Positions 6,042 through 63,269 of a stretch of 64,000 nt of DNA are shown one piece after another. The number at the start of each line of letters is the position of its first letter. Position 1 is the first letter of the stretch. The notes below the pieces were generated by a model that saw only the letters and a list, made by a program, of their open reading frames with translations, was not told where the DNA came from and did not search any database. The position numbers and the translations under genes are program-made. Origin of the DNA: Escherichia phage vB_EcoS_VAH1; the sequence record MK373792.1; one strand, written 5' to 3'.

Positions 6042-6319
6042 TTTTTAATCTCCGTAATTATCTGAGCACGCATCACTTTATTAGGTAATTTTGTATTCCC
6101 AGCTATTGCTTCAATATTGTTTAGTTTTTCTTTTAGAATATCTGAGCGTCTCTGTGCTAGTTCAATATCTTGTTCTTGTTCTATTAAGCGGCAGTGAAGT
6201 CCATCATTAGTAATAAGCATACTTTCCATGTTTTTTCGTGCGTTTACAATCCCAATAACTCCACCAATCGCTACTAGTGTAGTAAGAACTAGTAACCCAA
6301 TAAGAATTTCTGTAATCAT
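6038..6319 (-). CDS. membrane-anchored coiled-coil protein
   Basis: N-terminal TM then heptad-like region. Confidence 0.4.
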   Translation of the reverse strand: MITEILIGLLVLTTLVAIGGVIGIVNARKNMESMLITNDGLHCRLIEQEQDIELAQRRSDILKEKLNNIEAIAGNTKLPNKVMRAQIITEIKK

Positions 6320-6852
6320 TTATTTAATTCCTCTAAAGTAGGTAAGGGTTTTGTATGATCAAAAGTTTCTATAACAGCGTTAGGCCCATGTAGTTCTAAA
6401 CGTAGTTCATTAGCTCTTTGAACTGCCAACTCTAAATCTAGATACCTAAAGTAGCCTCCGTGTACTGTAATGCTTTCGGCGCTTCTGGCCTGGACTCTCC
6501 ATTGTTGTCGATCTTTTTTCCAGGTAACTCCTAAGTATCCCGAATTAGATTGAGCGATTCTGCTACGATTATTCTCTTGGGACGTACAATCTTTTAAATT
6601 ACACCATCTATTATCTTTTCTTATATTATTTAAGTGGTGTACTAGATTTGGAATATACCCCTCCATGTACAAAAAAGCTAACCTATGGGCTGCATATCTT
6701 TTTCTATTTATTCCAATAAATATATAACCATCCTTATCAGGACTACCAGCAATACTACCTGCTTTACCTCGCCCTCTACTGACTTTCCTTATAAATTCGC
6801 CCGTTTCCGGGCGGTATTCAAATAGCTCTTTTAATCTTTCTTGTGTTATCAT
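6316..6852 (-). CDS. HNH homing endonuclease (HNH_3/AP2-type)
   Basis: MITQERLKEL N-terminus, HRLAFLYMEGYIP...VHHLNN...N..NL motif; paralog of 10167..10706 and 62736..63269. Confidence 0.75.
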   Translation of the reverse strand: MITQERLKELFEYRPETGEFIRKVSRGRGKAGSIAGSPDKDGYIFIGINRKRYAAHRLAFLYMEGYIPNLVHHLNNIRKDNRWCNLKDCTSQENNRSRIAQSNSGYLGVTWKKDRQQWRVQARSAESITVHGGYFRYLDLELAVQRANELRLELHGPNAVIETFDHTKPLPTLEELNK

Positions 6853-7115
6853 TTTTTCTTTAATTGCTTAACTTCACGCTCAAAGCTAGCCGCTCGTCGT
6901 TCTGCCACTGCTTGATGCTCCTTAGCAAAGCGTGCCTCTTGTTTTGCTAAGTTAAAGGCCATAGCGTTCTTGTTAAGAGAATCGTACATCTTCTTCATCG
7001 CCGGAATAGACATTTTCATCAGTTGCCCCTCAAATCCTTGCATATCGAGGAGAATTGCCAGAACGTTAGCCATTTCATTTTTAGTCATGTTTTCCATTAG
7101 AATTTCCTCTCTCAT
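6849..7115 (-). CDS. hypothetical protein
   Basis: 88-aa ORF. Confidence 0.4.
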   Translation of the reverse strand: MREEILMENMTKNEMANVLAILLDMQGFEGQLMKMSIPAMKKMYDSLNKNAMAFNLAKQEARFAKEHQAVAERRAASFEREVKQLKKK

Positions 7116-7175
7116 TAATTTATGAACTTATTATACAGAATTTTAAGGCTTAAAGCAACTGAATTTTTTAATTAC

Positions 7176-7607
7176 TTACCAATCGTTAACAACACCAGAG
7201 AACTCAGAAGCAAAAACTTTTTCAAATTTTTCTGCAATTTCAGGATGATCTTTGCAGATCAGCTCAATGCATGCTTCTGGAGTCATTCCTTCATCTTCAG
7301 GATCACCATAGTATTTATCCCAAAGATCATCGGGAATGATATGCTCTGCCAAATCTTGGAAAGAGATTAACTGATAACGTTCTGCCTCCTCAGCGATAAG
7401 AATTTCGCACAGATCTTTATCTATATCGCTACGATAATCCGCAATTAATAAGGCATTGCAAGCATGACATTCCCAGACCATCAAACGTTCAGAGATAGGA
7501 TTAGACTTATCCTGAACGTAAGACTGGAACAAGGTTCGGAAAGTTGCCTTAACTTGTTCAAACTTATCTGCTGCTGCGAAAACTAGAGCTTTATCAACTT
7601 TGTTCAT
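7176..7607 (-). CDS. hypothetical acidic protein
   Basis: 143-aa ORF downstream of promoter cassette at ~7620-7680. Confidence 0.45.
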   Translation of the reverse strand: MNKVDKALVFAAADKFEQVKATFRTLFQSYVQDKSNPISERLMVWECHACNALLIADYRSDIDKDLCEILIAEEAERYQLISFQDLAEHIIPDDLWDKYYGDPEDEGMTPEACIELICKDHPEIAEKFEKVFASEFSGVVNDW

Positions 7608-7774
7608 TTTGATTCCTTCTCATCAATTTATAAAGTAATTATACAGAAACTTAAGCATTTTAGCAAATAAAACTTTCAATTAAAATGCCTAATCCTGTGC
7701 CAATAGCAATACAAATGATTATAAGTATTGCTATCGCTTGTATGCTTCGTTTAATAATAGCCTCAGCTATATAC

Positions 7775-9519: not shown

Positions 9520-9765
9520 TTATTCCCAAATAACAGTTAAAATAGTTGTGCCATAATCATTAGATAGCTGGAGAGTATAACCCTCTTTATAGAGGGCTTT
9601 TATAGCTTCATAACTAATTTCATCACGATTAAACTGTACAAAAGAACCCCCAATCTCCACAGAAGAAACTATTCTCTTTTTAACATACTTATATGGTTTC
9701 TTTCTGCTCTTGAGAAGAGCAGCTCTATTAACTCTAGCTAAATGTTTTGCTTGCTCTGCTAACAT
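9520..9765 (-). CDS. hypothetical protein
   Basis: 81-aa ORF. Confidence 0.4.
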   Translation of the reverse strand: MLAEQAKHLARVNRAALLKSRKKPYKYVKKRIVSSVEIGGSFVQFNRDEISYEAIKALYKEGYTLQLSNDYGTTILTVIWE

Positions 9766-9862
9766 TTAATCCTCCTATCAATCTATATAAATAGTATACC
9801 AAAATTTTTAGCAAAAAGCAAGTAAAATAAAAGCCTGATCCGCTAAGATCAGGCTTGGTTTA

Positions 9863-10166: not shown

Positions 10167-10706
10167 TTACTTGTTAAGCTCTTCTAAATCTGGTATATAT
10201 CCAAGAAACTCCTCAATTAAAGCGTACTCCCCAGCAATCTCCTGTCTAGACTTATTCGCTAAGTCTACTGCCAGAGCTAAGTCTTCATAATTGAAGATTC
10301 CTTTCATACGTTTTCGGCCTGTTTCATCCGTAATTTGAACTCTCCATTTCTGCCTATCTTTAGCCCACATAACATTTGCATATCCGGATTTGGACTTTTT
10401 ATGCTTTTTATTACGACAATTTTGTGGTTTAGATGCAGAACGTAAATTTTTCCATCGGTTATTTTGTGGATTTCTATCTATGTGATCCACAAATTCAGGT
10501 ATATATCCTTCCATATATAGGAAGGCCCATCTATGGGCTCCCTGCCTCTCCCCTTCCACCATTATCATTATGTAATCATTGTTGTACAGGGTTCCAGCTT
10601 CCATTCCCCTCTTTACATACTGATTATTACCATCTATCTTCCAGGTAAACACACCCGTTTCCGGGTTATAATCTAGTAATTCCTTTAATCTTTCTTGTGT
10701 TATCAC
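10167..10706 (-). CDS. HNH homing endonuclease (HNH_3/AP2-type)
   Basis: Paralog of 6316..6852; GTG start. Confidence 0.75.
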   Translation of the reverse strand: MITQERLKELLDYNPETGVFTWKIDGNNQYVKRGMEAGTLYNNDYIMIMVEGERQGAHRWAFLYMEGYIPEFVDHIDRNPQNNRWKNLRSASKPQNCRNKKHKKSKSGYANVMWAKDRQKWRVQITDETGRKRMKGIFNYEDLALAVDLANKSRQEIAGEYALIEEFLGYIPDLEELNK

Positions 10707-14261: not shown

Positions 14262-14614
14262 TAATCTTTCCTATTGTTAATGGGTGGATAGTAAACTAAG
14301 CAACGTTTTTCTTGTAAATCTTGGCGATAGAAGCAAACCATACTAGTCAGTCGTGAGATATATGAATATTCTGCCTCGCGGCATTTTGCTAACATATTCC
14401 AATCTTTATATGGTACAACAACTACTACGCCATCTTCGCCATTTGTAGCTAATTTCTTTTCGAATTTGAAATCAAAGCTACAAGGCTGAAGTCCTTTAGG
14501 CCAATCCACATGGGCTGTTGGTAGCTCATGTGTAGGTTCTGGCTTTATTTCTTGTGCACAGCCTGTGATTGTGATTGTGGCTGCGAGCAGTATTCCAAGT
14601 TTTATTTTGTGCAT
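14261..14614 (-). CDS. lipoprotein (lipobox ITGC), Pro-rich after the Cys
   Basis: MHKIKLGILLAATITITGC signal; possible o-spanin or exclusion lipoprotein. Confidence 0.55.
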   Translation of the reverse strand: MHKIKLGILLAATITITGCAQEIKPEPTHELPTAHVDWPKGLQPCSFDFKFEKKLATNGEDGVVVVVPYKDWNMLAKCREAEYSYISRLTSMVCFYRQDLQEKRCLVYYPPINNRKD

Positions 14615-14689
14615 CTACGCACCTCATAATGTGTTTCTATGTATTGTTCCACTTCTACTGGAGAAACATTGAAAAACTCTGTACTTCCA

Positions 14690-15301
14690 CTAAAACCCCA
14701 CATAACTGCATCTTTTATTTTTATAGATACTATGTAGGTCAGCTTCGATCTTAGCTGTTTCTTCCTTAGAACCCTTGCCACAAATATAGTAAGATGATAC
14801 TCTCAGGTCTTTAAAACCACTACAAGACTTAACTTCTAGAAGTCTTTTCTGCACATTCTTACTTATACCTATTTTTATGCCCTTATCGGAAACAAATATG
14901 TATAAAAATCCTTGTGTATCCCAAGCTGTTTTGGCACAATTTGGGCACCCACTATGGTGTAAAACGTGGTTAGTGGTTGTTTCCCACTGATGGGAACATG
15001 TATTACATAAAAACTTTAGCTTAGAAGTAGAATTAGTATATTCACTTAGTAATACGATTTTTCTAGGACTGAGGAGTGAGTTAATCCTGTCTTTGGTTAA
15101 CTTTTCATTGCCTGCACATTTTGGGCATCCTCTACCTTTATTTCTGACATTTGTAGGGGCTGTTAACCATGTATTAGAGCATATAAGACACTTAAATTGT
15201 GTCTTTGTCTTATTATGTTCATATTCCCCAACTAATCTTACTGTCCTACCTTGAGCTTCTAAGTCTTTATTAAAGATTTCTTTATTTATTTTTACGCTCA
15301 T
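14690..15301 (-). CDS. zinc-ribbon repeat + T5orf172 (GIY-YIG-like) protein
   Basis: Two CxxC...GCPxC ribbons then YIFVSDKGIKIGIS; same architecture as 46060..46731. Confidence 0.6.
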   Translation of the reverse strand: MSVKINKEIFNKDLEAQGRTVRLVGEYEHNKTKTQFKCLICSNTWLTAPTNVRNKGRGCPKCAGNEKLTKDRINSLLSPRKIVLLSEYTNSTSKLKFLCNTCSHQWETTTNHVLHHSGCPNCAKTAWDTQGFLYIFVSDKGIKIGISKNVQKRLLEVKSCSGFKDLRVSSYYICGKGSKEETAKIEADLHSIYKNKRCSYVGF

Positions 15302-16384: not shown

Positions 16385-16538
16385 ATTTAATCCTCTTGCC
16401 TCAATCTATGAATATATTATACAAAAGTTTGGGCATCTATGCAACTAAAATTTTATTACAAAAATAGCCCAGTCGCAAAAGTGCAGGCTGGGCTTTGTCA
16501 TTATTTGCTTTTGCTAGTAAGTTGACTTAGTGTCAATC

Positions 16539-17278: not shown

Positions 17279-17571
17279 TTCAGATCCTTTTCATTAATTA
17301 GAATATTAGTAAACAGAGGGGCAAATCCTAAACTCATAGTAGGTCCAAATGTTTTCATGGCTATCCATAACTGCATAGTAATCATGCCATCTTTAATTTC
17401 TGGATCTTTGTATTCCCCAATACGGGTTTTGGCGAAAGCCACTATATCTGGATTATTTTTATTTTCCTGAATATAGTCATGCCAAAATTGTGTATTCTCA
17501 CTACGTAGGAATGTTAAAATATCCTTAGTTGCTGGAATCTGCACTGTGCTATTGATGTTTAGCTTTTTCAC
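17275..17571 (-). CDS. hypothetical protein
   Basis: 98-aa ORF. Confidence 0.4.
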   Translation of the reverse strand: MKKLNINSTVQIPATKDILTFLRSENTQFWHDYIQENKNNPDIVAFAKTRIGEYKDPEIKDGMITMQLWIAMKTFGPTMSLGFAPLFTNILINEKDLK

Positions 17572-17968
17572 GTTCTTCTCTCCTACGTTTGCATTCTTTC
17601 ATCATATGGGCTGCTACAACTTCATGGTAGTAGTCATTAATGTTATCTTCTGGCAAGAAATGCTTAATAGTCTCTAGCTGACAAATAACTCGATGAAGAT
17701 GGTTATTTGGTAGGCATAATTTCATACCCGCAACAAACCCAGAGAAGCCTGGAATACTGAACATGGGTTGGGCTTCTACTCTACCTTCAGAGTTGATATT
17801 AAGCTCAATTGAGATACCCATTTTCATGTTATAAAGCTGGCAGTATTCCCCGTTACCGGACCTTGACCAAACAGTGAAGTCCTCATCAATTTGATCTTGG
17901 ATTTCTGTAATTGCAAATTTAATTCTAGGATCTAAATTATTCATCTTCACCTTCAAAGTCGCAATCAT
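17549..17968 (-). CDS. hypothetical protein
   Basis: 139-aa ORF. Confidence 0.4.
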   Translation of the reverse strand: MIATLKVKMNNLDPRIKFAITEIQDQIDEDFTVWSRSGNGEYCQLYNMKMGISIELNINSEGRVEAQPMFSIPGFSGFVAGMKLCLPNNHLHRVICQLETIKHFLPEDNINDYYHEVVAAHMMKECKRRREEREKAKHQ

Positions 17969-18510: not shown

Positions 18511-18540
18511 TTCAAACCTCTCTCATCAATTTATAAATAT

Positions 18541-18569
18541 ATTATAACAAGAAAAGAGAGGTTTAGCAA
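18541..18569 (-). promoter_or_regulatory. T5-type early promoter (one of ~20 minus-strand cassette copies)
   Basis: Minus strand TTGCTA - 17 nt - TATAAT, leader AUAAAUUGAUGAGAGAGG then ATG of 18229..18510. Confidence 0.6.
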
Positions 18570-18586
18570 ATGAATTATTTCAGAAA

Positions 18587-18934
18587 TTAGTCGTAGCACC
18601 ACCATAACCCACGCTTACGCATGTCATGATCGCGATTATAGTCGTAATTTTCTGGATCTTTCATCACGCGGTGGAGTTCTTGACGATTTCCTTGACGAAC
18701 CATTTTATTAGAGTGCCACTTAACATTCTTACTAACAGAATTCCAGCTATAACCATCCTTTTTCTCATTACGAATGGTTGCTTCTTCCATTTCCTGTTCT
18801 ACCTCATCCCAGGATTTAGCATAAGTAACACGAATGTAGTAGCCACTTGCTTTGAGGAAAGTATATCCCTGGGTGTAATTAGCTTTAGACTTCCACCACT
18901 GATCACCAGATTGTTTACGATAAGTACGGCTCAT
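18587..18934 (-). CDS. hypothetical basic/aromatic protein
   Basis: 115-aa ORF. Confidence 0.4.
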   Translation of the reverse strand: MSRTYRKQSGDQWWKSKANYTQGYTFLKASGYYIRVTYAKSWDEVEQEMEEATIRNEKKDGYSWNSVSKNVKWHSNKMVRQGNRQELHRVMKDPENYDYNRDHDMRKRGLWWCYD

Positions 18935-20097: not shown

Positions 20098-20388
20098 TCA
20101 CATACTGTCTAGGTAAGAAGTATAATGGAATTTAGTTTCTCCAGTCTTATCTACTTCTACCTCAGTTCGTGGTACTTGACGAACCACACCATGAATTATC
20201 TTATAACGGATGCCTTTAGCTGGTTCATGATCTTTTGGAAATACTTGTTTAACCGTCACTACTTTATATTCTTCACGCGGTGTTAACACTACTACTTGAT
20301 CACCTTCTTTGATTTTCCAAGAAGATGGAAATTCATAGGTATACCTTTGGCCACCAGTTTGGAATACTACAGAAAGATAACGTTTCAT
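20098..20388 (-). CDS. hypothetical protein
   Basis: 96-aa ORF with promoter cassette at ~20395-20460. Confidence 0.4.
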   Translation of the reverse strand: MKRYLSVVFQTGGQRYTYEFPSSWKIKEGDQVVVLTPREEYKVVTVKQVFPKDHEPAKGIRYKIIHGVVRQVPRTEVEVDKTGETKFHYTSYLDSM

Positions 20389-20418
20389 TTGGTTTCCCTC
20401 TCATTAATTTATATAAAT

Positions 20419-20447
20419 ATTATAACAAGAAATAAGAGAGAATGCAA
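20419..20447 (-). promoter_or_regulatory. T5-type early promoter
   Basis: Minus strand TTGCAT - 17 nt - TATAAT before 20098..20388. Confidence 0.55.
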
Positions 20448-20463
20448 ATGAATTTTTAAATTT

Positions 20464-21110: not shown

Positions 21111-21186
21111 TGGCAGAAGGTAGTGGATTCGAACCACTGATCAGGATTTCAGAGACCCCAGCCTTAACCGACTTGGCTAACCTTCT
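21111..21186 (-). tRNA. tRNA-Gln (anticodon CTG), tentative
   Basis: Acceptor AGAAGGT/ACCTTCT, T-arm GTGG-TTCGAAT-CCAC, loop CTCTGAA. Confidence 0.45.
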
Positions 21187-21745
21187 TCTTAATACTTTTT
21201 GGATCTTTACCTGTTAAGGATTTATAGCGTTTACGTAGTCCGTTATCGGATAATCCTAACTCTTTTGATGCTTTAACCCATGAATAGTTTATTACCCAAT
21301 ATTCTATTTGCTCTGCTGTAATATCAGGGCTACTCTTTGGTTTACAATCAAAACAAGTTTTAGATGAAGAATTTATTTGTTTATTACAATTAGGGCATTT
21401 ATTACCGCCTATTGTATGCCCTCTTTCAACTGTAGTTTTTATTCTATGATCTTGCTTGGTCATGACTACTAGATTATCTAAGGAAAAATTCAATTTATTC
21501 CTATCTTTGTGATCCACTTCTAGCTCAGACTCTAGCGAAGGTAGATCTTTAAATACTCTAGCTAGTAATCTATGTAATACAATAGAGACATTCTTTCCCT
21601 GCTCATAGAATGTTACAAAAGGATACCCTGCACTACCTAAATGATGCGTAAGTAATTTATTACTCTTGGTAGAGTAAACTTCTCCATATGGAGAGATTAA
21701 GTATTCAGGGTATTCCGGAATTGCTTTGAAATTCTCTAATTTCAC
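21164..21745 (-). CDS. HNH homing endonuclease with C-terminal module shared with 28692..29375
   Basis: HRLLARVF...EVDHKDRNKLNFSLDNL HNH core; C-terminal ~45 aa near-identical to the 28692 ORF. Confidence 0.7.
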   Translation of the reverse strand: MKLENFKAIPEYPEYLISPYGEVYSTKSNKLLTHHLGSAGYPFVTFYEQGKNVSIVLHRLLARVFKDLPSLESELEVDHKDRNKLNFSLDNLVVMTKQDHRIKTTVERGHTIGGNKCPNCNKQINSSSKTCFDCKPKSSPDITAEQIEYWVINYSWVKASKELGLSDNGLRKRYKSLTGKDPKSIKKKVSQVG

Positions 21746-22942: not shown

Positions 22943-23290
22943 CTAATAGTCACTCGTACTAGTGAAATCTTCTACTTTTCCACAAATTTTACAAGTCCTA
23001 CGATGATAGTAGGTAATTTTTACTTTAGACCAGCCATCGTGATCATTACCTAGGTTTTCTGTTGCTCCCCAAGTATGGGAACACTCATTTTCAATTTGCT
23101 TAGTAAGAGCGTTATAGCGAGTATAAAACTCCTCCTGGGCAATAGCAAACTCTTTCTGTAGTTTATCACGAGCAATAATAGCACGTTCCAGATATGTTAA
23201 ATCGGGCATTCCAGCTTTTTCAGCAGCATCTATAATCTTATCTTCATCTAAAGATGCTAAAAACTCTAGAGCTTTATCTTTTGCTAACAT
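22943..23290 (-). CDS. hypothetical protein with C-terminal Cys pairs
   Basis: 115-aa ORF. Confidence 0.4.
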   Translation of the reverse strand: MLAKDKALEFLASLDEDKIIDAAEKAGMPDLTYLERAIIARDKLQKEFAIAQEEFYTRYNALTKQIENECSHTWGATENLGNDHDGWSKVKITYYHRRTCKICGKVEDFTSTSDY

Positions 23291-46731: not shown

Positions 46732-48544
46732 ATTAATTGAGAATTGCAAAGGTCTGCTCACTCTAACTGCGGATAAGGACTTACAGCATAATAATGCTAA
46801 TAAGCCTAGTGAGATGTTCCATACTCAAAGAGACTTATTAGCTGGGGAAATTAACAAGTATTTAGTATCGCAAGAATTACCTAAACACCTGTTAGACGCA
46901 CATAATCTAGGTAAAATACACATTCATGACATGGACTACAGAGCACAAGGGTACACCAACTGTTGCTTAGTAGATCTAGGCGGTATGCTGAAAAATGGCA
47001 CTAAAATTGGTAACGCAAATATTGAAACTCCTAAATCCATAACTACTGCATGCGCGATTACTGCTCAGATTATTGCTCAAGTATCGGGTGCTCAGTATGG
47101 TGGCACTTCTATTGATCGTATCGATGAGGTTTTAGCCCCCTATGTCAGAAAGTCTTATGATAAGCACCTGGGTCGTGGTCTACGTTGGCTCAAGGATGAA
47201 AGGAAAGCTGCTGTATATGCTACTGAACTTACTGAAAAAGAGTGTTATGATGCATTCCAAGCCCTAGAGTATGAAACTAATTCATTATTTAACTCTAACG
47301 GACAGACTCCTTTTGTTACGCTTGGCTTTGGGCTAGGACAGGGGTGGGAGGAAAGGATGATTCAGAAAGCCATCCTCCAAAACCGTATTAAAGGTTTAGG
47401 TGCTGCTGAGTCAACCCCTATCTTCCCTAAACTAGTATTCTCAGTTAAAGAAGGGTTAAATAAAAATCCAGGCGATCCTAACTATGATATAAAACAGCTA
47501 GCACTTGAGTGTTCTGCTACCCGTATGTACCCGGACTATTTAAGTTACGAGAAAGTTGTAGCTGTTACTGGTGATTTTAAAGCACCTATGGGTTGTCGTA
47601 GTTTTTTATCCGCTATTCCTTCTGGGGAAACTGCCGGCCGTAATAATCTGGGTGTAGTGTCTATTAATCTACCTATGGTTGCTGCTGAGGCAGATGGGGT
47701 TTTTGAAGATTTCTGGGATATTCTGGACAAATATGTGGATGAGGCTTTTGAAGCTCATGATTTTTTCTTGGATAGACTTAAGAAAGTGAAGGCTAAACAA
47801 GCCCCTATTCTTTATATGCACGGTGGTTTTGGTGTGCGTTTAGATGGGGAAGAGTATGTATGGCCAATTTTTGAGGGTAGATCTTCTGTATCTCTTGGGT
47901 ATATTGGGGTCTATGAGATGTGCCAAATAATGTTTAGTTTACCGCAGACTCATAGGGACTGTATTGAATTTACAGAGGAAGTTCTTACTCACCTAAAAAA
48001 TCGTTGCGAAGTTAAAGCTAATGAGACTAATCTTGGGTTTAGCTTGTATGCTACTCCTAGTGAGTCTCTATGTAATCGCTTTAATAAACTACTGGAACGT
48101 AGGTTCCCTGAGTATTCTTGGCTAACAGATAAAGGCTATCTCACTAATAGTCATCATTTGGACGTAAGGGAGAAGGTAGCTCCGGATACTAAATTTGAGT
48201 ATGAAGCTCATTTCACCAAAATAGCTAATGGTGGTAATATATCGTTTGTGGAACTACCACAAATGAAAAAGTTCCATAAAGCTCTTGAATACGTAGTAGA
48301 TAAGGGATTAGAATGTAGCCATTATATTGGTGTTAATATACCAATTGATGAGTGCTTCAACTGTGGGTATATGGGTGAATCTGTTGCCTCTGAACGTGGG
48401 TTTGTATGTCCAAGTTGTGGGTCTGAAGAAATAGAGGTTACACGTAGGGTTTGCGGGTACCTGGGATCCCCGGGCAGTAGGCCTTTCAATTCTGGGAAAC
48501 AAAAAGAAGTGCTTGGTAGAGTAAAACACTTAAATCTTAAGTAA
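46718..48544 (+). CDS. nrdD: anaerobic ribonucleoside-triphosphate reductase (class III)
   Basis: C-terminal CFNCGY...CPSCGS zinc ribbon and RVCGY glycyl-radical motif. Confidence 0.88.
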   Translation: MTENELIENCKGLLTLTADKDLQHNNANKPSEMFHTQRDLLAGEINKYLVSQELPKHLLDAHNLGKIHIHDMDYRAQGYTNCCLVDLGGMLKNGTKIGNANIETPKSITTACAITAQIIAQVSGAQYGGTSIDRIDEVLAPYVRKSYDKHLGRGLRWLKDERKAAVYATELTEKECYDAFQALEYETNSLFNSNGQTPFVTLGFGLGQGWEERMIQKAILQNRIKGLGAAESTPIFPKLVFSVKEGLNKNPGDPNYDIKQLALECSATRMYPDYLSYEKVVAVTGDFKAPMGCRSFLSAIPSGETAGRNNLGVVSINLPMVAAEADGVFEDFWDILDKYVDEAFEAHDFFLDRLKKVKAKQAPILYMHGGFGVRLDGEEYVWPIFEGRSSVSLGYIGVYEMCQIMFSLPQTHRDCIEFTEEVLTHLKNRCEVKANETNLGFSLYATPSESLCNRFNKLLERRFPEYSWLTDKGYLTNSHHLDVREKVAPDTKFEYEAHFTKIANGGNISFVELPQMKKFHKALEYVVDKGLECSHYIGVNIPIDECFNCGYMGESVASERGFVCPSCGSEEIEVTRRVCGYLGSPGSRPFNSGKQKEVLGRVKHLNLK

Positions 48545-48550: not shown

Positions 48551-48590
48551 CAGCCGGGTTGCTAGTCGACCTGGCTTTTATTTTATTTGC
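48551..48590 (+). terminator. rho-independent terminator after nrdD
   Basis: AGCCGGG...CCTGGCT hairpin followed by TTTTATTTTATTT. Confidence 0.5.
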
Positions 48591-48615
48591 TTTCAGCCAA
48601 AAATTTATATATAAT
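48587..48615 (+). promoter_or_regulatory. T5-type early promoter (P_N25-like)
   Basis: TTGCTT - 17 nt - TATAAT, leader ...ATAAATTTGAGAGGAG before ATG 48644. Confidence 0.6.
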
Positions 48616-48643
48616 AGATTTATAAATTTGAGAGGAGAAAGCT

Positions 48644-48925
48644 ATGAGCGAATTGCTTCCTAAAGTAGATGTCTCCCATCTTGGGGAGCCTAGTGAAGAA
48701 CGTAAGGCTCTAGATTGGTTGGGCGGATTTGATTATCGTCGTGTTGTTGCAACATGGAATGATAAGAAAGTTAAGAAGTTTCGGGTACATTATGTAGGTA
48801 AAGACAAGTGGCTCTGGATTGATTATGAAGAATCGAAGGGGTCTACTAAGGCTGTGAAAATTTATCGTATGTATGGGTATTATTATGCTCACTGTGATAA
48901 GAATGAATTTACAGTACAGAACTAA
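48644..48925 (+). CDS. hypothetical protein
   Basis: 93-aa ORF behind promoter. Confidence 0.45.
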   Translation: MSELLPKVDVSHLGEPSEERKALDWLGGFDYRRVVATWNDKKVKKFRVHYVGKDKWLWIDYEESKGSTKAVKIYRMYGYYYAHCDKNEFTVQN

Positions 48926-49328: not shown

Positions 49329-50136
49329 ATTAATTGTTATTAGCGGTGCAGGTTTGAGTGTTGAAAGTGGTGTACGAGCTTTTCGTACTGATACTGCTAG
49401 TGGTAAAGCATTGTGGGATGATTATGACTTAGAAGAGGTATGTAATATTCATGCCTTTCGTGGTAATTTTTATCATAAAACCCACACGTTTTACAACAAA
49501 CGTCGTGAAGAGTTAGAAACTGTTGAACCCAATCTTGCACACTTGCGTATTGGTGAATGGTATAAGAAATATCCAGGTCAAGTAGTAAACTTGACTACCA
49601 ACGTTGATGACCTTATTGAGCGTGCTGGCGTTCCACATAGTGACATTCTGCACATTCATGGGTATTTAAAAGAGGTTGTTGTAGCTGATAGCTACAATAG
49701 TAGTAATAAACGAATTATTGATGTTGGGTATAGCTCTATTGACCCAGATGATTATAAATGGGTTAAACCTAATGTAATCTTCTTCGGGGAACATGCTCCA
49801 GCATATGCAGAAATGTACAATGTTTTTGATGGTATTACCAGTCAAGATATGATCATTGTGGTTGGTTGCTCTAACCAAGTAATTAACTTCTACTGGGAAT
49901 TATTTCCTGTTCTTAATCTGACTGCTGCAAAACTTATGGTAGTTAACTACTATGATAGTGCTCTAGCGGTGGAACCAGGCTATCAAGGTATGACTCGTAG
50001 TGAGATGTACCAGCTGGAAGAACGTGGTATCCCTTACTGGAGTAAAGGTGCGATAGATGCTTTCAATGATCCTGATTTTATTGCTCGTGTAGAAGCTCAT
50101 TTAGAGGGTAGACCTTATGTGTCGGGAAATAAGTAA
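49321..50136 (+). CDS. Sir2-family (sirtuin-like) NAD-dependent protein lacking the zinc-ribbon cysteines
   Basis: GAGLSVESGVRAFR, TTNVDDLIERAG, LHIHGYL, PNVIFFGE, IIVVGCSNQV in sirtuin order. Confidence 0.65.
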   Translation: MRRLIVISGAGLSVESGVRAFRTDTASGKALWDDYDLEEVCNIHAFRGNFYHKTHTFYNKRREELETVEPNLAHLRIGEWYKKYPGQVVNLTTNVDDLIERAGVPHSDILHIHGYLKEVVVADSYNSSNKRIIDVGYSSIDPDDYKWVKPNVIFFGEHAPAYAEMYNVFDGITSQDMIIVVGCSNQVINFYWELFPVLNLTAAKLMVVNYYDSALAVEPGYQGMTRSEMYQLEERGIPYWSKGAIDAFNDPDFIARVEAHLEGRPYVSGNK

Positions 50137-50629
50137 TACTCCAATTATTTTTCTAGATATTGATGGGGTGCTCAATTCGAGCATCTCCCACCATCATGCG
50201 CCTGATGATGAAAAGATTTTCTTTGGAAGTGACTGGGTTTTCAAACCGCTTCTCAAGGCTTTTCAGGACTTTATTCGTCCTTCTCCAATAATGATTGTTG
50301 GGGTATCTTCATGGTTCTCTGTCAGGAATGAGATGGAGAACGTTCAGATTATGACCGGATTAGATCTTATCGATCGTTTTCTAGGTACAACGGATTTTAC
50401 TGGTGGTGGGCTATCTAGGGGTAATTCTGTTCTTCGCTTCGTTGAAAAGCATAAGCTCAAACATTGGTGTGTGCTGGATGACGCTGGTGCTATGATGTAT
50501 CAGTATCCAACGGTTATAGTCAACGGTAGAACTGGAATAAATCTTCAAGATTTAAGAGCTGTTAGCTATATGTTAGAATTTAGTCCAGATCTTGAAATGT
50601 GTAAAGCCCTACAACAATTTAAGGTATAA
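50117..50629 (+). CDS. HAD-superfamily phosphatase-like protein
   Basis: IIFLDIDGVLN (DxDG motif I) near N-terminus. Confidence 0.5.
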   Translation: MCREISNTPIIFLDIDGVLNSSISHHHAPDDEKIFFGSDWVFKPLLKAFQDFIRPSPIMIVGVSSWFSVRNEMENVQIMTGLDLIDRFLGTTDFTGGGLSRGNSVLRFVEKHKLKHWCVLDDAGAMMYQYPTVIVNGRTGINLQDLRAVSYMLEFSPDLEMCKALQQFKV

Positions 50630-51547: not shown

Positions 51548-52054
51548 TTGTCGTTGACAATTTGGATGGATTATGTAATAATATATGTATTGGAGGTGAG
51601 GATGTCATTCACACAGCAAGAACTTTTAGATAACTTCCGATATGAAGATGGTAAGTTATTTAGAACTACAGGAAGAAATGCAGGGAAAGAATGTTGTGTC
51701 TCTACTGGTAACGGATATTATCGTATATCTCTAGGGAATAGGACTATGCTTCGGCATAGAGCAATATTTTTAATGCATCATGGATACTTACCTGATTTAG
51801 TAGATCATGTGAATACTGTAAAAGGTGATGATCGTATTGAAAATCTTAGAGAGCAGACAGTATCCGGTAATCTAAGAAATATCAAATATAAGAAAGGAAT
51901 GCATGTTTACCCTTCTGGTAGTAATAACTGGCAAGTAGTATTTACTATTAACCGTAAACGTATAGTTAAAGGAACATATGACAACTATGAGGTTGCATGT
52001 TCTATGGCCAAGATGTTTAGAGGTCAACTATACGGTAGGGAATCAATCCAGTAA
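51548..52054 (+). CDS. HNH homing endonuclease (HNH_3/AP2-type)
   Basis: LRHRAIFLMHHGYLPDLVDHVN...N..NL; own promoter with two TTGACA elements. Confidence 0.7.
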   Translation: MSLTIWMDYVIIYVLEVRMSFTQQELLDNFRYEDGKLFRTTGRNAGKECCVSTGNGYYRISLGNRTMLRHRAIFLMHHGYLPDLVDHVNTVKGDDRIENLREQTVSGNLRNIKYKKGMHVYPSGSNNWQVVFTINRKRIVKGTYDNYEVACSMAKMFRGQLYGRESIQ

Positions 52055-55379: not shown

Positions 55380-55596
55380 AAAATGGGAAACAAGGAAGTT
55401 TCCAGTAAAAGAACGTAAAGTTCCTATTTATGATACTTCGGAAAAGCTATGTAGGGTGGTACCATCTAGATTAGCTGGCATCCCTAACATATCCGAGTGG
55501 TTACTTAAACAACGGAGGACTAGCGTATCCCTTCGCATAGGGTTTGAGTTAGATAAAGTATATGCTGAACTTTCTTCTTTGCTCAAGGAACAATAA
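55354..55596 (+). CDS. hypothetical small protein
   Basis: 80-aa ORF. Confidence 0.3.
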   Translation: MLEMTVKNKKWETRKFPVKERKVPIYDTSEKLCRVVPSRLAGIPNISEWLLKQRRTSVSLRIGFELDKVYAELSSLLKEQ

Positions 55597-56168
55597 TGTT
55601 TATAAGAATTCCCGAATTTCCTGACTATGCAGTGAATGAAAATGGAGAGGTGTACTCTTTTCTCTCCTACAAGTTTCTTACTCCAGGTCAAAATACTGCT
55701 GGGTACTTACAAGTTAATTTAATGAAGGACGGCACCCCTATAAATGTGAGGGTGCATAGGTTAGTAGCTTATTGTTTTGGGCTACTTCCTGGGTTAGAAT
55801 CAGAATTGGTAGTAGACCATATAAACGATGATAAGTTAGATCCTAGACTATCTAACTTGCAGGTATTAACCTACAGAGCTAATGCAATAAAATTTCATAA
55901 TAAAAATTGGAGAGAACATCCAGATTTCCTAGTAGAAATTAAGAAATTAGAAAGTATGGGCATAACTAAAGCAGCTGCATCTTATAGGCGCAGGGCTATG
56001 TTTAAATATATTGTGGCTGTTCCCTCTAGTGATACTCTAACCTTAGAATTAATAGAATCTACATATCAGAAAACCAATTCTTGGGGAAAAACTGCTAGGG
56101 CTCTAGGCTTTAACAGTGCTCCTGCTATTAGATACAGGTATAATAAGCTGAAAGCAGCTTCTTTATAA
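55596..56168 (+). CDS. HNH homing endonuclease (NUMOD4/HNH_3-type)
   Basis: IPEFPDYAVNENGEVYS...GYLQVNL...HRLVAYCF...VDHINDDKLD..SNLQVL. Confidence 0.7.
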   Translation: MFIRIPEFPDYAVNENGEVYSFLSYKFLTPGQNTAGYLQVNLMKDGTPINVRVHRLVAYCFGLLPGLESELVVDHINDDKLDPRLSNLQVLTYRANAIKFHNKNWREHPDFLVEIKKLESMGITKAAASYRRRAMFKYIVAVPSSDTLTLELIESTYQKTNSWGKTARALGFNSAPAIRYRYNKLKAASL

Positions 56169-56174: not shown

Positions 56175-56234
56175 TTGCTTTACGATGAATTTTTCTGTAT
56201 AATAGATTCATAAATTTGAGAGAGGAGTTTAAAT
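56175..56234 (+). promoter_or_regulatory. T5 P_N25-like early promoter and leader
   Basis: TTGCTT(56175-56180) - 17 nt - TATAAT(56198-56203), leader ATAAATTTGAGAGAGGAGTTTAAAT then ATG; matches the classic T5 N25 promoter as recalled. Confidence 0.8.
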
Positions 56235-56939
56235 ATGGCTGGTTCTCGCAGAAAGAAACATATCCATGAAATCCCGGATGAAGTCTTTAAAAAAGTTATA
56301 GAGCATCTGGAGAACGGTGGTACTAAGAAAGCAGCATGTGAAATGCTCGGCGTATCATCCAACCCAACTATGGAAAGGATGATAGAAGAGTGGCAAGACC
56401 GCCAGATCCAAGTTGCCGAGATGAAGAAAAAGAAACGTGGTACACTCATTGAAGGTATTGAGTTGGCCAACGTTATTGAACAGTATCTATCTGGTGATTC
56501 TTTTGAAGAGATTGCCGATCGTAATTACCGCTCTGTAGCAATGGTTAAATCTGTTCTGGAACGCTATGGTGCTCTGCTTCGTTTGAACGATATTGTAGAT
56601 CCATTGAATCCACCAATTATTCCTGATGATGCTGTAGCAGAAGAATTTGAGGTAGGTGAGCTTGTTTGGGTTCCTGGATACCAGTGTATCGGTGAAATCA
56701 AAAAAGCAATGGATAACCCTGTTGGTTGTTACCGTGTATGGCTTCTATCAGAAGGCAAACAACAGAATGTTCATTATATGAATTATGAATTAGCTTCTGT
56801 AAAGCATTTGGAAAAGCTAGGGGTAGACGTAAAATCTCTGGGGTATAAATGGTCCCGGGAAGAAGTTATCACACTGATTAACGAAGCTGTTAAGGCCGCC
56901 TTGAAACTTGATAAAGAAAAAGGAAAACGCCGTGAGTAG
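56235..56939 (+). CDS. early protein with HTH-like N-terminal region
   Basis: KKAACEMLGVSSNPTMERMIEEW helix-turn-helix-like; directly behind P_N25-like promoter. Confidence 0.5.
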   Translation: MAGSRRKKHIHEIPDEVFKKVIEHLENGGTKKAACEMLGVSSNPTMERMIEEWQDRQIQVAEMKKKKRGTLIEGIELANVIEQYLSGDSFEEIADRNYRSVAMVKSVLERYGALLRLNDIVDPLNPPIIPDDAVAEEFEVGELVWVPGYQCIGEIKKAMDNPVGCYRVWLLSEGKQQNVHYMNYELASVKHLEKLGVDVKSLGYKWSREEVITLINEAVKAALKLDKEKGKRRE

Positions 56940-57183
56940 ACTAACTGATTTACTTAAAGATGGGGAAGTAAAAACACTATATCGTAGAAGCTGGGATAAC
57001 GATAATAACGGCTTAGTGTTACTAACTTTAGATGCTGACTCAGATGTAGCTACTCAGCATACCTGGGTAGCCGGTAACTATCCATATAGCGAGGTTGTTT
57101 CATTAACAGTATGCGAAGCTATTGCAGACGATTGGGAGGTTGCCAGCATCGATGATATGCTTGCTGTTGGCCTGGTGGAGTAA
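56908..57183 (+). CDS. hypothetical protein
   Basis: 91-aa ORF. Confidence 0.4.
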   Translation: MIKKKENAVSRLTDLLKDGEVKTLYRRSWDNDNNGLVLLTLDADSDVATQHTWVAGNYPYSEVVSLTVCEAIADDWEVASIDDMLAVGLVE

Positions 57184-57286
57184 CTACTTAAAAATTTCAG
57201 TTGCTTAATCCTACAATTCTTGATATAATATTCTCATAGTTTGAAAGAACTATTCTGTTTAATTCTTAATTAAGGAAATATAAAAT

Positions 57287-58390: not shown

Positions 58391-58477
58391 TTCTTGGCTT
58401 TTTCTTTATAAATGTATTTGCTTTCAACTCAGTTTTGTTATATAATATTTATATAAATTAATGAGAGATATAAATAA

Positions 58478-59453: not shown

Positions 59454-59641
59454 CCCTTTGCTACCCATCTACCGTATCGGAATTATGGTTATTGACATTT
59501 CGCCGCTTAGGTATATATACTATTATCATTCAGTTGAGGGATAGAAAGTTATGGCGAGGGTAAGCAAAGTTAGTTAAAATTGTAGTTGCTAAATGCTTAA
59601 ATACTTGCTATAATATTTATATAAATTGATAAGGAAGAAAT

Positions 59642-61184: not shown

Positions 61185-61202
61185 TCTGGTAAATTAAACC
61201 TA

Positions 61203-61236
61203 AGGGGAGGGGGCTATGCTCCTTCCCCTTTTTGCA
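61203..61236 (+). terminator. rho-independent terminator
   Basis: GGGGAGGGGG...CCTTCCCCT hairpin + TTTTTG. Confidence 0.6.
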
Positions 61237-62739
61237 TTTAGAAGGCACGAAAGCGTGCAAAGGAGAATGACCTTGTTTAACGTGCAAGCTGTAGTGTTGA
61301 AGATGCTTCTAGCTTCCGAACAGAAGCAAATAGCATTGGAAACATTCTCAAAACTGCATAAAGATCATTTTAATGACGCTTTCTCCTCAATTTACCAAGC
61401 CGTCCAGAATTATTATAAAAAATATAACACAATGCCGTCCATTGACGCACTTATGCTTGAAGCTAATAGGAACGCCCGCCTTTCTCAAGCTCTAGTCGTC
61501 TTAGCTAACACTCAAATTCCAGAAGTGAGCATGGAACAGGCACTTGAAGTCCTAGAGGCCGAATATACACAGGATTTATTCCTGAAGCTTCTAGAAACAG
61601 ACGTGCTTCAAGATTTAACAATGCTGGATCAGGGAGAAATTCTCAACCGAGTTGCCTCCCTTCACTTAAAATTAGAAGAGAAAGTAACGAATACTGGAAA
61701 AGTATTCAACGCAGATAACATGCGTATTTTCCAGAGAGAAGAAGATACCAAACTGAACTTAATCGCTCTTGGTATTTGTAATGAGTTCGACGCTCAAATC
61801 GGTTTAGCTCGCACAGAAACGTTACTGCTTGGTGGTTGGCGTGGTACTGGTAAATCCATTATCTGTTCAAACATACAGGTTCAGCAATATTTGAATGGGG
61901 ATATTGCTCCATACTTCTCAATTGAGATGAAAGAACATGAAGTATTTAGACGTAATCTAGCCATGTTAGCTGGTGTATCAGCATTAGCAATGCGTAATAA
62001 TACTCTAGAAGGTGCAGCTCTGTTGAGATTAGCCAGAACTAGAGCTAGAATGTTTAATGGTGGTGAAGAGCTTTTCGACAACTTCGTTAAACAGTATACA
62101 ATGGCTAAGATGAGTGATTTCTACGATATGGAGAGTAAGCTAATAGAGGGATATGAACTACATACTCCTATGATTATCGTTTATGACCCTGAACTGTCCA
62201 TTACAACAGTTGACGTAGAATTAAATAAATTAGTTGCTAGATATGGTGATAAAGTTACAGTAGCTCTACTTGACTATATTAACCAAACCCGACTTCCAGA
62301 CTCTAAAACCATTGATATGTATGACTGGAAAGAACAGATGGTTGTTAGCTCGTCTTTCAAATCTATCTGCCAGAAACATAACGTGGCTGGTGTAGCTCCT
62401 TACCAGATCGATCAAGATGGTAGAACACGTATGTCAAAGGGTATTCTTGATTCCGCAGATATGGCTGCTAATCTTAATGCTGCAAAAGCTGATAATGGTC
62501 AAGGTGCTATTATGTTTGACTTCGTTAAGACTCGTTCTTCTGATAGCGTGAAGTTTATGCCTAAAATGAACTGGGAAACCTTGCGGATGGATAACACTAC
62601 CAACCTAGCAATGGAAGATATATCTCAAATGGAAGCTGAGTTCATTATCCCTATTGAGAAGGATAAGCCGGCTCAACCTAAACGTGCTAAGAAAGACAAA
62701 ACTGAAAATTCAACAGGTGAACAGGCCAGCGATATATGA
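61216..62739 (+). CDS. DnaB-like replicative helicase (true start probably downstream of the terminator)
   Basis: Walker A GGWRGTGKS, Walker B IIVYDPELS, RecA-like C-domain. Confidence 0.55.
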   Translation: MLLPLFAFRRHESVQRRMTLFNVQAVVLKMLLASEQKQIALETFSKLHKDHFNDAFSSIYQAVQNYYKKYNTMPSIDALMLEANRNARLSQALVVLANTQIPEVSMEQALEVLEAEYTQDLFLKLLETDVLQDLTMLDQGEILNRVASLHLKLEEKVTNTGKVFNADNMRIFQREEDTKLNLIALGICNEFDAQIGLARTETLLLGGWRGTGKSIICSNIQVQQYLNGDIAPYFSIEMKEHEVFRRNLAMLAGVSALAMRNNTLEGAALLRLARTRARMFNGGEELFDNFVKQYTMAKMSDFYDMESKLIEGYELHTPMIIVYDPELSITTVDVELNKLVARYGDKVTVALLDYINQTRLPDSKTIDMYDWKEQMVVSSSFKSICQKHNVAGVAPYQIDQDGRTRMSKGILDSADMAANLNAAKADNGQGAIMFDFVKTRSSDSVKFMPKMNWETLRMDNTTNLAMEDISQMEAEFIIPIEKDKPAQPKRAKKDKTENSTGEQASDI

Positions 62740-63269
62740 TAACACAGGAAAGGCTAAAAGAGTTATTTGATTACTCCCCAGGAACTGGGGAGTTTACTAG
62801 AAAAGTATCTAGAGGTAATCAGAAAGCTGGTAGTATAGCTGGTTCTTTAAGAAAAGATGATTATATATGTATATGGGTAGATGGAAAGCCTTACTATGCG
62901 CATCAACTAGCTTTTCTCTATATGGAAGGTTATTTACCTGAAGAAGTAGACCATATAAACCGTATACGAAGTGATAATCGTTGGGTTAACCTTAAAGATT
63001 CTTCTCACCAAGAGAATAGCAGGAATAAAGCAGCTAAAAGTAAATCAGGGTATATAGGAGTTAGTTGGAATAAACAAAGGCAAAAATGGCAAGTTCAACT
63101 AAGAGATACCAATAAAAAGAAAATATTCGGTGGATATTTTGAGTACCAGAATTTAGAATCAGCCGTAGATAAGATTAATAAGCTACGATTACAATTTCAT
63201 GGGGAAAATGCTATTCAAGAAATATTCGACCCGTCTAATTATCCTGCATTAGAGGAGATAAATTCATGA
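62736..63269 (+). CDS. HNH homing endonuclease (HNH_3/AP2-type)
   Basis: MITQERLKELFDY... paralog of 6316..6852 and 10167..10706. Confidence 0.75.
   Translation: MITQERLKELFDYSPGTGEFTRKVSRGNQKAGSIAGSLRKDDYICIWVDGKPYYAHQLAFLYMEGYLPEEVDHINRIRSDNRWVNLKDSSHQENSRNKAAKSKSGYIGVSWNKQRQKWQVQLRDTNKKKIFGGYFEYQNLESAVDKINKLRLQFHGENAIQEIFDPSNYPALEEINS

Follow-up and report, generated by a model that had tools for sequence, protein, structure and literature searches.

Homing endonuclease genes and their shared segments in the left arm of the T5-like Escherichia phage vB_EcoS_VAH1

Introduction

A stretch of 64,000 nucleotides from Escherichia phage vB_EcoS_VAH1 (record MK373792.1; the whole stretch is called the window below) carries twelve open reading frames (ORFs) of homing-endonuclease type, and several of these dispersed ORFs share segments of similar DNA. 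Are the segments near-identical repeats through which nuclease genes at different loci recombine, as a sequence-only reading of the window had proposed, or are they of older origin? The analysis reported here makes it very probable that the twelve ORFs are free-standing, selfish homing endonuclease genes (HEGs), located between conserved phage genes and translationally coupled to them, and that the shared segments go back to protein elements conserved among old paralogs. As judged from the sequence, the dispersed segments are neither recent duplications nor tracts of active ectopic recombination.

Nuclease genes of the window

A 12-kb slice of the window was 94% identical to phage T5 and matched 626 phage records, mostly T5-like. 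When the complete window was mapped by blastn, positions 3-63999 were collinear with T5 (Tequintavirus) 10016-70877, in full synteny and at about 94% identity. The gene content starts just past the left terminal repeat, takes in the tRNA cluster and genes of nucleotide metabolism, and reaches the replication genes; by its sequence, the window is assigned to a T5-like phage (Tequintavirus) as its pre-early/early left arm. The T5 record AY543070 lists ten HNH genes (hegA to hegJ) and numerous promoters of 75 bp.

All twelve ORFs of the sequence-only reading were recovered in place, and the start of one of them (51548) was corrected: its likely start is ATG 51602, since the 18 residues gained by starting from the upstream TTG have no aligned counterpart in the paralogs. 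Non-ATG starts were found at 10167, 21164 and 26337 (GTG) and at 888 and 51548 (TTG). When the twelve proteins were compared by phmmer with every stop-to-stop ORF of the window, no further family member was found. The genes are listed below, with profile E-values in parentheses, and each is named in the text after its first coordinate (14690 after the ORF as listed).

888-1268, minus strand: stand-alone T5orf172 ORF without DNA-binding domain; likely start ATG 1241; in a 1.8-kb segment replacing T5.018
6316-6852, minus strand: HNH_3 HEG (5.6e-11) in place of the small gene T5.031; 4-nt overlap with each neighbour
10167-10706, minus strand: HNH_3 HEG (1e-13); inserted cleanly (556 bp) at the junction of T5.037 (thioredoxin gene) and T5.038
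14602-15301, minus strand: HEG with two Zn-ribbons (DUF4379/CapR) and T5orf172, inserted between T5.044 and T5.045; listed ORF 14690-15301
21164-21745, minus strand: ortholog of T5 hegD (F-TflII), with NUMOD4, HNH_3, Zn-ribbon and C-terminal three-helix module
24110-24583, minus strand: T5orf172 HEG with helical N-terminal region; clean insertion beside tRNA-Lys, its 3' end overlapping the tRNA
26337-26855, minus strand: T5.069 ortholog of 172 aa (T5orf172, 2.6e-12), its 3' end overlapping tRNA-Asn
28692-29375, minus strand: ortholog of T5 hegA (F-TflIV), with LuxR-type helix-turn-helix (HTH), HNH core with CxxC pairs, Zn-ribbon and C-terminal module
46060-46731, plus strand: HEG with two Zn-ribbons and T5orf172, inserted upstream of nrdD; 14-nt overlap with the nrdD start
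51602-52054, plus strand: distant HNH_3 HEG (3.1e-11; phrog_99, 1.7e-41), inserted between T5.107 and the origin-binding protein gene
55596-56168, plus strand: HNH_3 HEG (3.8e-8) with NUMOD4-like N-terminus; clean 571-bp insertion after the T5.110 homolog
62736-63269, plus strand: mosaic allele of an HNH_3 HEG (2.3e-13), located where T5 has hegJ, with the genes of the D6 helicase and the primase on its two sides

Similar DNA segments shared by the nuclease genes

The window was compared with itself by blastn. The nucleotide matches between nuclease genes that the sequence-only reading had described are real and lie far beyond chance, but the near-identity ascribed to them was not observed, identities being only 66-80%. 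The matches were the following:

62736 and 6316: 65.6% over 544 bp, E = 7e-28
28702-28844 and 21186-21328 (C-terminal module): 78.3% over 143 bp, E = 9e-27
26511-26669 and 24254-24412 (26337 and 24110): 69.4% over 160 bp, E = 2e-9
10646-10705 and 6792-6851 (5' ends of 10167 and 6316): 80% over 60 bp, E = 9e-8
62737-62797 and 10705-10645 (5' ends of 62736 and 10167): 75% over 61 bp, E = 5e-4

In the same comparison, no DNA-level similarity was found between 14690 and 46060, between 21164 and 55596, or between 51548 and the others. Two kinds of shared segment are at issue:

6792-6851, minus strand: conserved 5' segment of 6316, first 20 codons (MITQERLKEL...), with counterparts at 10646-10705 (minus strand) and 62737-62797 (plus strand)
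21186-21328, minus strand: part of 21164 that encodes the shared C-terminal module (PDIT...SIKK, 48 aa)
28702-28844, minus strand: DNA of the same module in 28692

In a codon alignment of 6316, 62736 and 10167, the first 20 codons displayed a nucleotide identity of 72-79%, versus 52-63% in the remainder of the genes. Where a degenerate residue was identical in two proteins, the same codon was used at 7/15, 9/14 and 5/14 positions of the N-terminal stretch and at 43/87, 24/66 and 37/76 positions elsewhere. The codon usage of the window predicts a proportion of about 0.42, and no excess was detected in the N-terminal stretch (binomial p = 0.55, 0.12 and 0.83). Since the rate of shared codons is close to this expectation, the DNA similarity follows from the conservation of the protein. 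The motif MITQ[ED][ER]LK...Y.P..G.F is also present in T5 hegE, hegJ and hegH, and the MITQERLKEL segment is, on this sequence evidence, best described as a conserved protein element of the HNH subfamily. The description of these codons as nearly identical at the DNA level had to be abandoned; the similarity is essentially one of protein only, the very outcome which the sequence-only reading had named as its refutation.

Likewise, the C-terminal module of 21164 and 28692 was present as described, with 42 of 48 residues identical (88%), but its DNA was not near-identical: 112 of 144 nucleotides (78%) agreed, and the longest exact run was 14 nt. Identical residues shared their codon in 22 of 40 cases (55%, p = 0.06). 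The two genes are also homologous outside the module, across the HNH-Zn-ribbon-HTH half, with 35% identity over 69 residues that include the HNH motif and the CxxC...CxxC ribbon (E = 4e-9), and there codon sharing (12/24) was like that inside. Furthermore, a four-way comparison with T5 hegD and hegA showed that the modules of orthologs agree at 140-142 of 144 nucleotides (97-99%), and those of paralogs at 109-113 of 144 (76-78%). As orthologs cluster over paralogs, no homogenisation has taken place since the split between T5 and the window phage, and concerted evolution of the hegD and hegA modules was rejected on the same ground. Recent gene conversion between paralogs was rejected too, because neither the N-terminal stretch, nor the C-terminal module, nor the HNH/Zn-ribbon part contained an excess of shared codons.

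These results bear on the proposal that the segments are near-identical repeats, serving at present as substrates for ectopic recombination between dispersed nuclease genes, with domain shuffling still going on. The proposal can draw on the statistical reality of the matches and on the ability of phage recombination to use short, imperfect homology; domain swaps between HEGs are described for vibriophages by Barth, Dunham and Seed (2023, PMC10448857). However, the low identities, exact runs of at most 14-15 nt and the lack of any shared-codon excess all speak against it, as does the persistence of the same hegD/hegA module pair, unhomogenised, in T5. The role of recombination substrates between paralogs is therefore unsupported, and we regard the proposal as quite improbable. 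In the preferred reading, that of old paralogs, the shared segments, namely an N-terminal structural motif and a three-helix C-terminal module, would have been held by purifying selection while synonymous sites were randomised. The window thus offers a worked case in which nucleotide matches in a dot-plot are fully explicable by protein conservation.

Allelic recombination at the D6/primase locus

Recombination did leave traces inside one HEG. Gene 62736 and T5 hegJ are identical from position -34, upstream of the ATG, to nt 103; identity then falls to 48-74% up to about nt 500, and is again 90-100% through the last ~35 nt into the primase gene, so that the two proteins are 65% identical overall. 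The central part of the window type was found at 97-99.8% identity in 14 records, over or beside the primase gene in the twelve that are annotated; the other two are unannotated. A transfer of this centre between loci was considered, and no evidence for it was found: megablast with nt 108-534 returned the D6/primase locus only, and an apparent second locus in vB_Sen_I1 was due to a permuted record.

The vB_Sen_I1 allele (1394-1927 of its retrieved segment) proved to be a hybrid, of the window type to about nt 300 and of a third type thereafter. In Shivani (1003-1536 of its retrieved segment), a T5-type allele was interspersed with window-type patches of about 50 nt (nt 200-249, 94%; nt 450-499, 82%). 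Together with that of SHSML-45 (1303-1836 of its retrieved segment), the HEG alleles of this locus are mosaics of at least three sequence types, with patches down to about 50 nt. Within this single HEG, alleles have thus clearly recombined in a patchwork manner.

Both the breakpoint at nt 103, which coincides with the end of the conserved 5' segment, and the short conversion patches in Shivani could be taken in favour of exchange between dispersed nuclease genes. Nevertheless, the window-type centre of 62736 occurs in other phages at the same locus only, and allelic exchange alone suffices for all the mosaics seen. Recombination inside HEGs was seen only between alleles of one locus in different phages, at D6/primase, and in these comparisons no case of exchange between different HEG loci was found.

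Insertion sites, occupancy and flanks

Compared with T5, eight of the HEGs stand as precise insertions or as replacements of T5 sequence. Of these, 10167, 14690, 24110 and 55596 are inserted cleanly at the junction of two genes, while 51602 and 46060 (absent from T5) lie in spacers, 6316 replaces T5.031 and 888 is located in the replaced 1.8-kb segment. On the alignment, T5 positions 18937 and 18939 adjoin across the 10167 insertion, the 24110 insertion covers 24119-24582, and the 6316 indel covers 6310-6848. The four remaining loci (21164, 26337, 28692 and 62736) are occupied in T5 as well, with 3 of 193 residues differing between 21164 and hegD, 4 of 227 between 28692 and hegA and 2 of 172 between 26337 and T5.069.

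Conversely, five T5 HEGs are absent from the window: hegF, hegH and hegI precisely, and hegE and hegC by replacement with ORFs of unknown function (17549-17968, minus strand, 139 aa, phrog_5486; 22943-23290, minus strand, 115 aa, phrog_36910; no Pfam family). For these two sites and for the other window-only ORFs, Pfam returned nothing and PHROGs only families of unknown function, so that no extra nucleases were revealed by these searches. The hegI site, which lies 240 bp upstream of 55596, is empty in the window. In T5, the hegC ORF overlaps tRNA-Ser(GGA); this tRNA gene falls within the replacement, and the window yielded no match to it.

Presence or absence across T5-like genomes was followed by querying nine loci, each with about 500 bp of flank on either side (window 100-2900 for the 888 region), and by counting occupied among matching phage records:

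888 region: occupied in 19 of 445 records
6316 locus: occupied in 61 of 357 records
10167 locus: occupied in 12 of 419 records
14690 locus: occupied in 18 of 445 records
24110 locus: occupied in 52 of 434 records
26337 locus: occupied in 52 of 463 records
46060 locus: occupied in 10 of 437 records
51602 locus: occupied in 30 of 440 records
55596 locus: occupied in 12 of 494 records

Occupancy was patchy, at 2-17% for each of the nine loci, as expected for mobile HEGs, and some phages hold a different HEG at the thioredoxin junction where 10167 is inserted. The presence of homing-endonuclease-type genes in a T5-like genome, as first read from the window, is borne out by these distributions and by the domains described below.

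The HEG ORFs overlap the start or stop codons of their neighbours by 1-20 nt. In addition, three ORFs extend at their 3' ends into the 5' portion of a tRNA gene: 21164 into tRNA-Gln(CTG) (21111-21186) by 23 nt, 24110 into tRNA-Lys (24042-24119) by 10 nt and 26337 into tRNA-Asn (26283-26360) by 24 nt. Processing of these tRNAs would therefore cut the HEG mRNAs. Overlaps of this kind are reported in PMC2330249 for HEGs in the tRNA clusters of T5 and T4, with the proposal that they limit expression.

Within 500 bp of HEG-polymorphic sites, identity to T5 was 89.8%, versus 94.1% elsewhere, and only 0.8% of 5000 random placements gave a value as low (p≈0.008). The flanks of three HEGs shared with T5 were 92-98% identical. 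The extreme case is nrdD (46718-48544) beside 46060, which displays about 68% nucleotide identity to T5 and encodes 608 versus 574 aa. From the alignments, the divergence of the flanks is read as the signature of co-conversion, in keeping with the 'nuclease genes at boundaries of genetic exchange' of Barth et al. A likely mechanism may be deduced from general knowledge of HEGs. In a mixed infection, each enzyme would nick or cut the HEG-less allele of a related phage, and recombinational repair would then copy the HEG, with some flanking DNA, into the cut genome.

Regarding the nrdD locus itself, phage ESCO40 has the same arrangement of the 46060 HEG and nrdD at 98.8% identity. In HildyBeyeler, 61% of the 46060-locus query matched in two pieces whose span was about 500 bp shorter, which we read as the same 5' part of nrdD without the HEG. 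At the other end of the window, position 1 lies at about the point where the left terminal repeat ends on its inner side; the end of the T5 repeat (10219) corresponds to about window 200, and that of the direct terminal repeat (DTR) of Kenya-K18 to about window 100. This boundary near window 100-200 places the 888 gene in a variable segment just inside it.

Domain architecture of the nucleases

Domains were assigned with profile hidden Markov models (HMMs), and HNH, T5orf172 and Zn-ribbon domains were confirmed; the AP2, NUMOD and GIY-YIG labels given in the sequence-only reading largely were not. Instead of its four families, sequence profiles sort the twelve ORFs into two nuclease superfamilies with six architectures, seven ORFs being HNH/His-Me and five T5orf172. 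The paralogous sets with modular architectures were retained, and this corrected classification is a by-product of the analysis.

Three architectures occur among the HNH/His-Me proteins. Four of them combine an N-terminal beta-hairpin motif with HNH_3 and a putatively AP2-like tail; another two resemble I-HmuI and join HNH_3 to a NUMOD4-type N-terminus; the seventh, which belongs to the F-TflIV type, is built from a LuxR HTH, an HNH core and a Zn-ribbon. The Pfam gathering scores are 24.8 bits for HNH_3 (PF13392), 23.4 for NUMOD4 (PF07463) and 33.3 for AP2 (PF00847). HNH_3 exceeded its cutoff in 6316 (42.3 bits), 10167 (51.1), 62736 (50.0), 51548 (43.2), 21164 (38.3) and 55596 (33.3), and fell below it in 28692 (16.8 bits for the full protein, 18.9 for the isolated core). 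The latter protein matched GerE at its N-terminus (9.4e-7), HNH_3 at 0.0053 (core alone: HNH_3 0.0012, HNH 0.0029) and the PHROG phrog_14736 'HNH endonuclease' at 5e-80; PHROG families named 'homing endonuclease' or 'HNH endonuclease' also match 888 and 51602. The common label HNH/NUMOD-type for 21164, 28692 and 55596 therefore holds for 21164 (NUMOD4, 28.9 bits), is just missed by 55596 (20.5 bits) and does not apply to 28692, which has the GerE HTH and no NUMOD4 match. As to the AP2 label, the only match was a partial one in 62736 (18.8 bits, E = 0.002), below the cutoff; the Shivani ortholog was labelled HNH and AP2/ERF by its depositors, and an AP2 resemblance of 62736 is plausible from its sequence.

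Within the HNH_3 group, 6316 is a paralog of T5 hegJ and hegE and is 60% identical in amino acids to 62736; 51602 is 27-30% identical to 6316, 10167 and 62736. Protein 55596 is 34% identical to 21164 over its full length and carries a diverged copy of the C-terminal helical module. Residues 14-116 of 21164 align with residues 12-110 of I-HmuI (1u3e; E = 2e-10). For 62736, no match at E <= 1 was found in the PDB, and the I-HmuI similarity was confined to the NUMOD4-type subgroup. The clear difference between 21164 and 28692 lies in the N-terminal half, a NUMOD4-type region versus a LuxR HTH with an extra CxxC pair. Domain shuffling, as proposed in the sequence-only reading, is consequently visible at the level of architecture only, as differing N-terminal or DNA-binding parts on homologous cores, and is not demonstrable for the C-terminal module: a module under stronger constraint accounts for the rise from 35% to 88% identity no less well than an exchange at a later time.

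For the second superfamily, the gathering scores are 20 bits for T5orf172 (PF10544), 22.3 for MUG113 (PF13455) and 22.6 for GIY-YIG (PF01541). T5orf172 scored 34.7 bits in 888, 25.8 in 14690, 44.0 in 46060, 54.7 in 24110 and 47.6 in 26337, and MUG113 32-69.5 bits, all above cutoff. Because both models pass equally in 24110 and 26337 and in 888, 14690 and 46060, the zinc-ribbon group and the GIY-YIG-like group of the sequence-only reading are one nuclease family. The best match to canonical GIY-YIG was that of 26337, below cutoff (13.5 bits, E = 0.091), so that the GIY-YIG label of 24110 and 26337 stands through the literature only, T5orf172 being described as a GIY-YIG subfamily in PMC10448857. 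A C-terminal Glu motif was found in each protein: CTEFF in 888, ATEFF in 46060, GEWFE in 24110, HEWFS in 26337 and, in the +1 frame, STEFF in 14690. The catalytic role of this Glu was deduced from GIY-YIG alignments (PMC10448857).

Two of these proteins carry tandem Zn-ribbons N-terminal to the nuclease, two have a helical N-terminal domain and one is bare. In 14690, the ribbons matched CapR (PF21817; 49.3 bits, two stretches) and DUF4379 (PF14311; 43.5 bits, two stretches), and in 46060 DUF4379 (53.4 bits, two stretches; 3e-14) and CapR (34.8 bits; 1.9e-8), T5orf172 reaching 3.2e-11 in the latter protein. Pfam found neither CapR nor DUF4379 in 888, 24110 or 26337, which confirms the earlier view of two Zn-ribbon T5orf172 proteins with 888 as a ribbon-less relative. 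The bare ORF 888 matched MUG113 (3.4e-12), T5orf172 (2.7e-8) and, over profile positions 1-102 of 236 only, phrog_18411 'homing endonuclease'; it has an ortholog of 119 aa in phage Kenya-K18. Protein 24110 (MUG113 3.8e-19, T5orf172 1.6e-14) is 50% identical to its paralog 26337. Judging by the length of 172 aa, T5.069 is probably the 'T5 orf172' that named the Pfam family.

One might still ask whether the similarities are due to chance or the ORFs are not real genes, given the several non-ATG starts and the sub-threshold AP2 and GIY-YIG matches. With Pfam E-values down to 1e-19, self-blastn E-values down to 7e-28 and orthologs annotated at 93-99% identity in many phage genomes, the probability of this is negligible.

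Frameshift in gene 14690 and quality of the assembly

Gene 14690 is read in two frames owing to one extra base at about 14700 (GGGGTTTTAG), within a G/T run. The listed ORF ends in ...SYVGF without the TEFF motif, and the T5orf172 domain, including STEFF, goes on in the +1 frame. The ortholog in SHSML-45 is intact, in a single frame of 232 aa. Single-base indels relative to T5 were also observed in the T5.041 holin homolog (~12480), T5.042 (~13482), dnk (~14075) and ligA (58743, 59088 and 59105); dnk and ligA, like the 14690 HEG, are each read in two frames, and several of the indels lie at or beside short base runs. A programmed +1 frameshift at UUU_UAG in 14690, plausible in view of the slippery context, was rejected, considering the one-frame ortholog of SHSML-45 and the other 1-nt indels in conserved genes. 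As such indels also affect conserved genes, sequencing or assembly error is suggested, and the frameshift of 14690 is not safe evidence of HEG decay; a sequencing error is as likely as genuine decay. Apparent pseudogenes in this assembly, which contains several single-base frameshifts in conserved genes, should not be over-read.

The C-terminal module and the question of domestication

The shared C-terminal module matched no Pfam family. An AlphaFold model predicted a confident three-helix bundle (pLDDT ~90), and a Foldseek search with this model returned HTH domains (AraC, Fis, DeoR, LysR), all non-significant (E >= 0.8); the module may accordingly be called HTH-like by inference from the model. 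By tblastn, it was found in 195 places of 164 phage records, all T5-like/Demerecviridae, and diverged copies occur in T5 hegC as well as in 55596.

Several observations count against the preferred explanation. The 88% amino acid conservation of the module between paralogs, with saturated synonymous sites, exceeds what a purely selfish, decaying element needs, and could mean an additional selected function. ORF 888 lacks a recognisable DNA-binding domain and is perhaps no autonomous HEG, the sequenced copy of 14690 is out of frame, and the AP2 and GIY-YIG Pfam models miss their thresholds. The divergence of the flanks, too, could partly reflect generally variable regions.

Some of the nucleases might then be domesticated, serving to exclude co-infecting relatives, to nick T5 DNA, to process the tRNA region or to defend against satellites, and the module might reflect a shared selected target such as tRNA-gene DNA. 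The strong protein conservation of the 48-aa module would agree with this explanation, as would its confinement to HEGs of Demerecviridae and the fact that, within the tRNA cluster, the genes which carry it lie at tRNA genes or overlap them; moreover, domesticated T5orf172 nucleases are known from the ICP1/PLE system. Against this, each locus is occupied in such a small fraction of relatives that none of the genes can be required, and T5 and the window phage carry largely different sets of HEGs. Domestication is thus unlikely, and free-standing selfish HEGs remain the preferred explanation.

A more speculative and rather doubtful idea is that the module would be dedicated to the recognition of a common feature of tRNA-gene DNA, the nucleases of the tRNA cluster acting as a cooperating set that drives inheritance of the tRNA region and not as independent selfish genes. 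Relatedly, the 5' ~100 nt and 3' ~35 nt of the D6/primase HEG might serve as fixed 'docking' ends for swapping a central catalytic/specificity cassette between alleles.

Other repeats and differences from T5

The strongest dispersed nucleotide repeats of the window lie outside the nucleases. Self-blastn revealed about 20 intergenic copies of 60-80 bp each, 75-96% identical and oriented along local transcription, which are stronger than most of the nuclease repeats and make up the majority of the other self-matches. They coincide with 75-bp promoters annotated in T5 (P10a, P11, P13-P15, N25, N26, K28 and others) and correspond to T5 early-promoter elements:

Early-promoter repeats, copies 1-11: 7104-7174, 7606-7684, 9764-9835, 16393-16455, 18517-18589, 20382-20463, 23880-23954, 25076-25167, 28205-28284, 30100-30188, 33971-34043
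Early-promoter repeats, copies 12-21: 34644-34720, 35473-35568, 36801-36884, 38396-38481, 45785-45853, 48573-48644, 56188-56241, 57180-57238, 58405-58477, 59564-59641

Two further differences from T5 were observed. An ORF of 93 aa (39310-39591, minus strand; phrog_5321, unknown function) lies between rnh and thy and is absent from T5, and the T5.103/T5.104 segment (~326 bp) is missing at window ~50125-50138.

Comparison with known systems

The HEGs of the window are ordinary members of known families in a phage lineage known to be rich in HEGs, all of this having been reported before for T5-like phages (Barth et al. 2023; T5 hegA-J). HEGs are said in the BF23 genome paper (PMC10644984) to make up most differences among T5-like genomes. 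The window provides a textbook example of how free-standing HEGs create most gene-content differences and local mosaicism among these phages, with little import beyond annotation.

First, with regard to T5 itself, F-TflI (hegC), F-TflII (hegD) and F-TflIV (hegA) are characterised site-specific endonucleases (Akulenko et al. 2004, as cited in PMC2330249 and PMC10644984). Genes 21164, 28692 and 62736 occupy the hegD, hegA and hegJ loci; the C-terminal module is likewise common to T5 hegD and hegA, with a diverged copy in hegC, and 6316 and 10167 are paralogs of hegE/hegJ with 48-60% amino acid identity. In contrast to T5, the window is without hegC, hegE, hegF, hegH and hegI, four of its HNH genes (6316, 10167, 51602 and 55596) lie at sites unoccupied in T5, and the central part of its hegJ-locus allele is replaced.

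Concerning the T5orf172 HEGs, Barth et al. describe them as abundant in T5-like phages; 87% of those in their account carry CapR, DUF723 or DUF4379 Zn-fingers, they occur near nrd and replication genes, and their domains are shuffled. Genes 14690 and 46060 agree with this description in joining the nuclease to tandem CapR/DUF4379 ribbons, in the position of 46060 beside nrdD, and in their patchy distribution, diverged flanks and modular build. Unlike them, 24110 and 26337 have a helical N-terminus that is no Zn-finger and 888 is bare, and neither intragenic nucleotide repeats nor recent HEG-HEG swaps were seen in the window.

His-Me group 2 (HNH_3) enzymes with modular DNA-binding tails are described in PMC5714182. 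I-HmuI, the strand-specific nicking HNH enzyme of Bacillus phage SPO1, is likened by sequence to 21164 in its N-terminal DNA-binding strands and HNH core. However, I-HmuI is intron-encoded, whereas the window genes are free-standing and the C-terminus of 21164 consists of a Zn-ribbon and the lineage-specific three-helix module.

Finally, the window genes may be compared with the Seg (GIY-YIG) and Mob (HNH) HEGs of T4, for example SegB (PMC2330249). T4 is of another phage lineage, T5orf172 is not canonical GIY-YIG and HNH_3 is not Mob-type; yet in both phages the genes are free-standing, lie in the tRNA cluster and beside nrd genes, and overlap tRNA genes.

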